A DNA stretch of 64,000 nt, taken from NCBI GenBank assembly GCA_964016885.1, contig OZ024746.1, forward strand, positions 8,928,001-8,992,000, given 5' to 3'. Shown here piece after piece: positions 28,265 to 29,330 of the stretch. Positions within the stretch are counted from its first letter, which is position 1. Every line of letters starts with the position of its first letter. This DNA is from Eledone cirrhosa. Taxonomy: Eukaryota. Under the pieces are notes generated by a model. It worked only from the letters and a program-made list of their open reading frames with translations. It searched no databases and was not told the origin of the DNA. The translations under genes were made by a program, and so were the position numbers.

Positions 28265-29329
28265 TGTTATATTTGGGGAGGGTCATATTTGCGTAATATT
28301 GCCAGAATTAATAACAGAACACACTCACTGTTTGGTTGGTTTTCGCTTCTCGCTGTCTTTTATATATATATATATATATCTGCGATCTAACTTACTCGGT
28401 CCTCAATGTTGCCATTGACTGACCGGCGGTCAAAAATAATACAGATACAATATAGACAAACACATATATATATAGTTTACATAATTTACATAAATCTTTC
28501 GTTGCACATCTGCAACATCGTCAGTGGTGTTATATTCATTGTTCCTCCTGTTGTGTTGTATGTCTACGCCATTTTTTTTTGTGTTCAGTCTGTCTATATA
28601 TTTATTTATTTATTTATTTGCTTGTTTGTTTATCTTATTTTATTTTGTCTTCTTTGCGCATGCGTTTGCGTGTGTGTATAGTGTTATGTGTGATGTGTGA
28701 CTAGTGTGTATAGTGTTGTGTCTGCTGGGTGACTAGTGTGTGTTTATGTGCTTGTGTATGTATTTATTTATCTTATTTTATTTAATTTAATTTACTTATT
28801 TATTTATACTTCTCTTAGGTCAGTGTTGTTTGTTTGGGTGTTGTTGTTGTTCCACTCATTCTTTCTGTTTAGCTTTGGTCTTCTAATTTCTATTTCACTG
28901 GCCTCTCTGATTTGCCTATCTGCTGGGTCATTCCTATGTTTAGATATTATTCTAATTTCTATGTTGTCTATGTTACCGTCATGTTGTTGTCTAGCATGTT
29001 CGTATAGTACTGACCCGTTTTTTCGTCCTTTTAGTTCCCCCCAGTGTTGGTCTATCCTTTCACCTATGCTACGAGCTGTCTCACCTATGTATGTTGTTGT
29101 CGTGTTTCTGCAAGTACCCTCTGTACATCTTATGCTATAGACTACGTTTCTAGTTTTACAGTTTATCCGGGGGTTCACCTTACATATGATACATTTCCTA
29201 GTGGTACAGTGGGTTTTCTTAAAAGGGTAGGTTTTGCTGATCAGGGATTTTATGGTGGTTCCTGGCTTTTCTACCACCTTTATTTTTAAGTGGGTCTTTC
29301 TCTGAGAAAGACCCACTAATTCATCGCCG

Positions 29330-29330
<1 letters not shown>
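28264..29330 (-). mobile_element. 5'-truncated Penelope-like retroelement (Neptune-like) with pseudo-LTR, inserted in (TA)n
   Basis: GIY-YIG ORF followed on the minus strand by a ~340-bp segment that recurs as a solo copy at 58911-59246 and carries a hammerhead-like core at 28488-28530. Confidence 0.85.
28804..29300 (-). CDS. GIY-YIG endonuclease domain with upstream Cys-rich linker of a Penelope-like element (5'-truncated, frame open)
   Basis: C-x4-C-x2-C-x7-C linker, NVVYSIRC...YIGETARSIGERIDQH, SVLYEHARQQH, RQIREASEI...PKLN: PLE GIY-YIG motifs with conserved R, E and N. Confidence 0.9.

Follow-up and report, generated by a model that had tools for sequence, protein, structure and literature searches.

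A hairpin joined to an inverted tail fragment at the 5' junction of a truncated Penelope-like element from Eledone cirrhosa

How does a copy of a Penelope-like element (PLE) that has lost its 5' end come to finish in a small hairpin followed by an inverted scrap of its own 3' tail? The junction at 29289-29330 of the DNA analysed here (a stretch of 64,000 nucleotides from Eledone cirrhosa, hereafter the window) poses this question in compact form. Inverted 5' pieces, a one-sided tail, palindromes at junctions, microhomology and targeting of (TA)n have already been described for PLEs (PMC3846280, PMC8557442), and snap-back synthesis has likewise been published. The origin of the inverted repeats and of the one-sided tail is stated to be open in the available text of two PLE studies (PMC8557442, PMC11167929). 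We therefore examined the coding copy, its two possible 3' end sites and the junction itself, and compared them with neighbouring insertions that also end in TA tracts.

Results

The coding copy occupies the minus strand (Table 1), and its frame 29301-28804 encodes 165 amino acids with 2,060 relatives at E values up to 0.001. Alignment with these relatives contains the signature VVY..C....C..YIGE..R...H...H, including two cysteines and two histidines, and places a GIY-YIG core together with the R, E, N catalytic region in the protein; CX4CxxC lies at residues 32-40. A strict regular expression for the GIY-YIG core found no match on account of spacing, and patterns for YIGE..R..H and for the second histidine both matched. 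Pfam searches of the window protein returned no match in two versions; with an E limit of 0.1, 12 of the 21 proteins in the alignment matched Pfam GIY-YIG, and the best PDB match, the intron endonuclease 1mk0, was weak (E 0.067). No reverse transcriptase (RT) was found anywhere in the 64-kb window, and the coding copy is the endonuclease half only. Among relatives of at least 550 amino acids, 7 of 17 carried a [YF]xDD motif ahead of the endonuclease motif, and one of nine scanned relatives matched Pfam RVT_1, below the cut-off. A stop codon and then the 3' region follow directly beyond the endonuclease, and the best relatives have RT-side sequence upstream; Naiad, with its N-terminal endonuclease, was ruled out by this arrangement. 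Judged from its sequence, the element is a 5'-truncated, endonuclease-only PLE of the Neptune/Nematis type, because the clade features given for C-terminal-endonuclease PLEs in the available text of PMC8557442 fit. Since the window contains no RT, the copy is dead as well as truncated at its 5' end, and its placement goes no further than the Neptune/Nematis pair. A search for prokaryotic relatives of the locus in bacterial and archaeal genomes gave 177 pattern matches, of which none was confirmed.

Table 1 Features of the coding copy, its junction and related copies in the window
Feature	Coordinates	Strand	Remarks
(TA)n-rich microsatellite	28188..28263	.	Target, proximal-end side
3' terminal (pLTR) region of the coding copy	28264..28603	-	Ends at proximal site P (28264)
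ATG and first 7-8 codons of the presumed ORF start of a next unit	28264..28286	-	MTLPKYN; cut at P
Minimal-hammerhead-like core	28491..28524	-	Sense to the ORF; motif scan
5'-truncated ORF, 165 amino acids	28804..29302	-	CX4CxxC in the RT-EN linker; GIY-YIG endonuclease bearing CCHH-type residues; uninterrupted as far as the stop
Hairpin arm, native coding sequence	29289..29302	-	RKTH and flanking bases
Central T of the hairpin	29303	.	Gln if read on -, Leu if read on +
Inverted duplicate of the native arm	29304..29317	+	Either copied by fold-back or left over from a longer second arm
ACT, 3-nt microhomology	29315..29317	+	Common to the duplicate arm and the tail scrap
Final 16 nt of the element tail	29315..29330	+	Ends at distal site D; inverted relative to the ORF
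(TA)24	29331..29378	.	Distal-end-side target; common to the next insertion (family A, 29379-29568)
Diverged relative of the PLE 3' end	55549..55596	+	Shares the proximal end site; a TA run follows
Short 5'-truncated copy of the PLE family	58913..59302	+	Ends at site D; no inverted arm
Tail, 56 nt (59 with the ambiguous TAT)	59247..59302	+	In frame with ATG 59221; stop-free

We located the end of native coding sequence by anchoring 73 of 155 relatives' proteins on the conserved VVE motif and scoring each position of the window protein against them. Positions from the R at 29301 onward scored neutral to high, and eight of the nine upstream positions were negative. In tblastn searches, 14 of 16 alignments began at 29286-29301 and two passed the apex of the hairpin (to 29307 and 29331). 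Homology stops near 29302, so the ORF-side arm is native coding sequence and the other arm its duplicate; GTG at 29316, which lies inside the distal arm in a frame open from the TA run onward, is then no real start, as a first-pass annotation of the locus had argued. Read on the plus strand the apex base gives Leu. Relatives have I, L or F at this position in 38 of 73 cases and Gln in a single one, and Leu is the residue in the closest of them; among close relatives sought for the native apex codon, the best was only 53% identical.

Between the 3' regions of the coding copy (28264..28603) and of the short copy (58913-59243) there are 316 matches and 5 mismatches, and microsatellites account for most of the 29 gap columns. 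The short copy runs on to the distal site D (59302), whereas the coding copy ends at the proximal site P, 56-59 nt before it; the border TAT is common to the element and the TA run, hence the ambiguity. What had been called a solo pLTR is this short copy, truncated at its 5' end and reaching the distal site; a SINE-like repeat and a TA-rich stretch precede it. ATG 59221 opens a frame through the whole tail, and the tail joins the short copy without a TA spacer. The same ATG and frame occur in three copies, and the relative at 55574 differs from the coding copy at two positions, both synonymous; the local score of the relative at 55549..55596 was 50, against 46 for the best of 300 shuffles. No full-length copy is present in the window, and the ATG in 28264..28286 is probably a real ORF start. 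We take the 56-59-nt difference to be the optional 'tail' already described in PLEs, which is delimited by two RT start sites. An AC-rich stem-loop like that of PAc was sought in the PLE tail and was absent, and the tail folds more weakly than its shuffles. The element at 55234-55596 is also TA-ended: its final ~50 nt are similar to the PLE 3' end and share the stop site, the remainder is unrelated, and it may be a diverged or non-autonomous PLE relative.

Hammerhead-like cores were found by motif scan at 58987 (+) and 28524 (-), with the PLE-type extra nucleotide after position 9, a G-C closing pair, a 6-bp helix II and a 2-bp helix I (compared with the available description in PMC4209133). 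The scan has a background, since one or more motifs with a helix II of 4 bp or longer turned up in 7 of 30 shuffled windows, and the PLE core is a candidate ribozyme only. Rfam returned no hammerhead match for the short copy or for one copy of a non-coding family (family C, below), and none among the best 150 of 243 matches for the whole window, where it returned microRNA-type hairpin and microsatellite matches below the gathering score. We regard Rfam as insensitive here, because it had no match even where the motif scan was clear. Family C and a relative carry six predicted minimal type-I hammerhead motifs, at 7757 (-), 7916 (+), 17104 (+), 27478 (+), 23658 (-) and 26124 (-), all sense to the tail, with a palindromic helix III and, in five of the six, a helix I of 8 bp. 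In the palindromes of family A (24566-24672 and other copies), reading by eye shows a hammerhead-like motif of which only the 3' half is present. The apexes of these palindromes are concentrated in its apparent helix II, and a ribozyme hairpin may set the fold-back point.

At the junction, two perfect 14-bp arms flank a single T to form the hairpin at 29289-29317, which as single-stranded DNA is predicted to fold, with a z of about -7, into a 13-bp stem closed by a 3-nt loop. An arm length of 14 bp was reached in none of 300 dinucleotide shuffles of 28800-29330, the best shuffle giving 9. Perfect hairpins with arms of at least 11 bp are common in the window (13, this one included), so it is the context of 29289-29317, and not the hairpin alone, that is informative. 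The 16 nucleotides at 29315-29330 are identical to 59287-59302, and (TA)n comes next at both places; followed by TA, this 16-mer occurs at two places in the window, both on the plus strand and none on the minus strand, and, with 480 (TA)n borders to consider, its presence at one of them would arise by chance with a probability of about 3.5e-8. Hairpin and 16-mer are both beyond chance. They overlap by exactly three nucleotides, ACT: the fold-back template goes on with TA, and AAA precedes the matching segment of the tail. A microhomology of at least 3 nt is expected by chance with p about 0.06, so the ACT overlap is near chance and by itself weak. A natural primer hairpin at the apex was only marginal in folding (-0.5 kcal/mol). 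The junction structure has no function of its own in this dead copy.

These results bear out most of what the first-pass annotation had read at this junction. A perfect 14-bp hairpin at the 5' truncation of the coding copy, running into the 16-mer and (TA)n, is matched exactly in the sequence. The alignment places the 16-mer at the extreme end of the short copy and shows that the 28264 end of the coding copy, with 56-59 nt missing, lacks it. The proposed act microhomology is there, at the chance level given above. The 16-mer can also be accepted as the element's own inverted tail, being continuous with the short copy and in frame with the conserved ATG.

We next mapped both arms of 17 insertions from four non-coding multi-copy families (A, B, C and G); 16 were two-armed and, with the PLE copy, gave n=17. 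This end-pairing count, with ends sorted by eye, omits SINE-like inverted pairs, the 6991/8419 pair and the compound region 26467-27667. Two recurring end sites were observed in each family, P lying inside D by 77 nt (A), 61 nt (B), 83-85 nt (C) and 60-62 nt (G), compared with 56-59 nt in the PLE. Thirteen of the 17 two-armed insertions paired P with D and one paired P with P; three used another TA site for one of their arms, and none paired D with D. If each end were chosen independently between P and D with a probability of one half, a null that is itself an assumption, 13 mixed pairs of 14 would have p = 9e-4. One-armed copies (three D, three P) fit the one-half null. All eight single-copy elements with inverted arms, two of them with weak arms, had one end flush and the other extended by 37-110 nt.

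In five of the 13 P+D insertions (15886-16010, 56258-56345, 23562-23788, 48043-48202 and the PLE copy) each arm has sequence absent from the other, so self-copying alone cannot produce those five. The join runs through seven shared bases in 15886-16010 and two in 56258-56345; both family C joins are too diverged to read. An apex hairpin is present among the five in the PLE copy only. Five apex loops elsewhere could be assigned to an arm from the sequence of other copies, with assignments resting on 2-4 nt: two derive from the P arm (55942, 29878) and three wholly or partly from the D arm. Palindromes with arms of 149 and about 175 bp are still intact in the window. A family B insertion at 25123-25190 consists of tail only, and at 25123-25160 it forms a short self-primed hairpin with a 4-nt loop, joined straight to (TA)n; it is the cleanest fold-back in the window.

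In each of the other multi-copy families examined, the corresponding position is taken by that family's own tail. Of ten tails from nine families compared with the PLE tail, those of family B alone scored, its two copies giving nominal, uncorrected p values of 0.003 and 0.012; we set this similarity aside as evidence because unrelated window positions score as high. The similarity lies between 59263-59282 and the family B tails at 14895-14931, and it is weak and not significant window-wide. The first-pass annotation had tied the coding PLE to the non-coding families. The head-to-head plan and the tail on one side stand as common ground, but comparison of the nine families' tails revealed no shared sequence, and to judge from these alignments the two are alike in architecture and target only. 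The short-arm and inverted-tail architecture attributed to the coding PLE is likewise there, but it is not a new link, the plan having been published for PLEs.

Several further features of the window were recorded. At 27335-27667, between two TA tracts, an inverted arm of one family lies head to head with a distal-ended family C arm, possibly a two-armed insertion from two different RNAs. A 16-nt two-armed mini-insertion of family A sits between TA tracts at 56368-56383; one of its arms starts at an in-tail TA, which suggests that priming can be guided by TA matches. A SINE-like family of ~200 nt, neither TA-targeted nor palindromic, has copies at 6484-6700, 9395-9585, 9850-10063, 12900-13100, 17571-17766, 47620-47815, 58745-58904, 62478-62686 and 62921-63074, and presumably resembles cephalopod SINEs. 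About 347 copies of a 28-bp unit are arrayed in tandem over 9.7 kb at 31689-41365, with trinucleotide and 21-bp arrays beyond it, to 46235.

Discussion

The account that we favour, and consider modestly probable, is that both strands of the target were primed, one at each start site, and that the long cDNA folded back for 14 nt before an ACT join to the tail cDNA. From the product we infer the two-strand priming, the order of events and the enzyme. The PLE endonuclease would cut both strands of the (TA)n tract. One target 3' end would prime cDNA at P, which would run about 1,040 nt into the endonuclease coding region, and the other would prime at D, 56-59 nt further 3' on the RNA, of which about 16 nt would be kept. 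The two antisense cDNAs would have no complementary sequence, because the short one lies wholly inside the tail. The 3' end of the long cDNA would then snap back and, with itself as template, gain 14 nt through the action of either the RT or a host polymerase; its new ACT end would anneal to the AGT end of the short cDNA, and fill-in would seal the join. Were the distal cDNA to reach past P, the fold-back copy would anneal to it over long homology, giving a near-perfect palindrome with a one-sided tail, the form found in the non-coding families.

Each step has a precedent. Purified PLE protein cuts and extends both strands, and its RT starts at two internal sites that delimit the tail, as described in PMC11167929. 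Snap-back synthesis on the cDNA precedes 5' joining in accounts of R2 (PMC11204384, PMC11371274), and yeast breaks yield fold-back duplications of 5-34 bp joined by 0-5 bp of microhomology (PMC11724301). In L1, twin priming with microhomology (PMC11702581) and twin priming together with fold-back in insertions (PMC10191854) have been described. At 29289-29330 two inverted cDNA pieces, neither templating the other, meet at a microhomology join, one of the marks of L1-type twin priming; in a (TA)n target any target-site duplication would blend into the repeat. The fixed pair of ends in each family, the excess of P+D pairs, the five junctions that self-copying cannot produce and the loops drawn from P arms all favour the two-ended account. 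Several observations count against it. The hairpin-plus-tail junction is single, and the 64 kb hold no further coding-family copies. Snap-back requires either an untemplated apex T or an atypical native residue. Twin priming and fold-back of a single cDNA that ends at P would both be compatible with the P+D excess, and the other four non-copyable junctions are hairpin-free and could each be a later deletion. In the in vitro PLE study the use of start sites did not differ between the strands in the text available (PMC11167929), so that a pairing of one site with each strand is a proposal.

The strongest rival, which we think rather unlikely, starts from one D-primed cDNA of about 1.1 kb that folds at the apex and copies itself back to P; the product would be a palindrome of ~1 kb with its tail on one side, on the pattern of 29878-30234. 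A later deletion with breakpoints in two ACT triplets would then have cost the D arm about 1.07 kb, so that 14 bp at the apex and 16 nt of tail survive. It adds one event to a plan that recurs in the window, and it makes the apex T part of a Leu codon on the D arm, a mild advantage that we estimate at a factor of roughly two. Long perfect palindromes are also unstable, although repair of a palindrome usually takes out the apex, which here is kept. Both ingredients have been reported for Penelope in the available text of PMC3846280: self-priming was proposed for junction palindromes, there on an antisense template, and microhomology-mediated deletions of copies were described. Yet a separate deletion would be needed in each of the five P+D insertions, sparing the D terminus every time, and the palindromes with 149- and about 175-bp arms persist. 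Nor does a D-primed fold-back predict the P-arm loops (two of five), the P+P insertion (24759-25100) or the three P-only copies. The first-pass annotation had linked the coding PLE to the short-arm and inverted-tail plan of the non-coding families; the specific order of a hairpin followed by a tail scrap is found at the PLE copy but not at the other four non-copyable junctions. Since that order is seen once, and later deletion gives the same sequence, it was overstated as a plan.

Template jumping would dispense with fold-back altogether, and we consider it improbable. Here the D-primed RT, after 16 nt, would jump through a 3-nt match to the RNA near the end of the P cDNA and copy 14-16 nt, and the cDNA ends would be joined at the apex, so that the hairpin would consist of two independent cDNAs. 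Such a jump must land within 14 nt of the end of the other cDNA on a 1-kb template, a coincidence that self-copying gives free. Least probable of all is an unrelated TA-targeting repeat beside both copies, comprising the 16-mer or the whole 56-nt tail, or an assembly or library artefact across a long palindrome: TA tracts in the window do gather many unrelated insertions side by side, and a full tail occurs only once, but the 16-mer is found only beside the two PLE-family copies, the tail is contiguous with the short copy and continues the frame of the ATG kept in three copies, and the other multi-copy families examined carry their own tails in the same place.

As a general proposal, which we put forward tentatively and with less confidence than the account of this one junction, TA-targeting PLEs may insert by coordinated twin priming, with one fixed start site per strand and the fold-back of one cDNA captured by the other. 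If true, this would account for inverted pLTRs, one-sided tails, small-loop palindromes and tail-only scraps without an antisense template. The dense palindromic, hammerhead-bearing repeats of this genome would be non-autonomous PLE passengers, and the 29289-29330 junction would be an arrested intermediate with both steps visible. In the open-access literature on PLE mechanism, on twin priming and on non-autonomous palindromic PLEs, supplements aside, we found no statement of one start site per target strand in a single event, and none of tail-only arms as an argument against self-priming as the whole story. The junction is mostly explained by known PLE and end-joining biology. What such junctions offer is a discriminating feature: tail-side arms too short to copy or template the other arm separate self-priming of a single cDNA from priming at two ends. 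They can be counted in any PLE-rich genome and could be sought in the existing in vitro system. On a separate matter, octopus has unusually many loci that form near-perfect double-stranded RNA, with heavy A-to-I editing, and lizard Penelope is heavily edited (from the available text of PMC5625713); dense self-folding palindromic insertions such as those in the window would supply double-stranded RNA, and a link to editing is speculation.

Among known systems, the Neptune/Nematis-type PLEs with C-terminal endonuclease, as described in PMC8557442, are closest. They share the C-terminal GIY-YIG domain, a CX2-5CxxC linker and CCHH-type residues, and also the (TA)n targets, 5' truncation, an inverted 5'-truncated piece at the 5' end and a tail at one end. 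The window PLE differs in its tail, of 56-59 nt compared with 30-40 nt there, and in its inverted piece, which at 16 nt lies wholly in the tail and so leaves no terminal inverted repeat. Penelope of Adineta vaga, in the account of PMC3846280, shares inverted pLTRs, an optional tail, a pLTR and tail that here probably extend over the first ORF codons, palindromes at the inverted junction and microhomology at a 5' junction. Its palindromes lie at pLTR 5' ends and are read as self-priming on an antisense template, whereas in the window it is truncated coding sequence that forms the hairpin, and what comes after it could have been templated by neither arm. With PAc, the Poseidon element of Anolis (PMC11167929), the window PLE has in common an AT-rich target and, presumably, two RT start sites inside the ORF start that bound the tail, and cutting and extension of both strands; PAc belongs to another clade, and the available text of that study leaves second-strand synthesis and joining open and does not deal with inverted copies. 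Beyond PLEs, L1 twin priming, R2 snap-back junctions and templated fold-back insertions at breaks would share with the favoured account a second cDNA primed at the other target end, inverted pieces joined by microhomology and a short inverted extension of the cDNA 3' end before joining. The second priming in L1 falls at variable internal sites upstream of the first, whereas the elements of the window use fixed sites near the 3' part of the RNA and carry their arms head to head.
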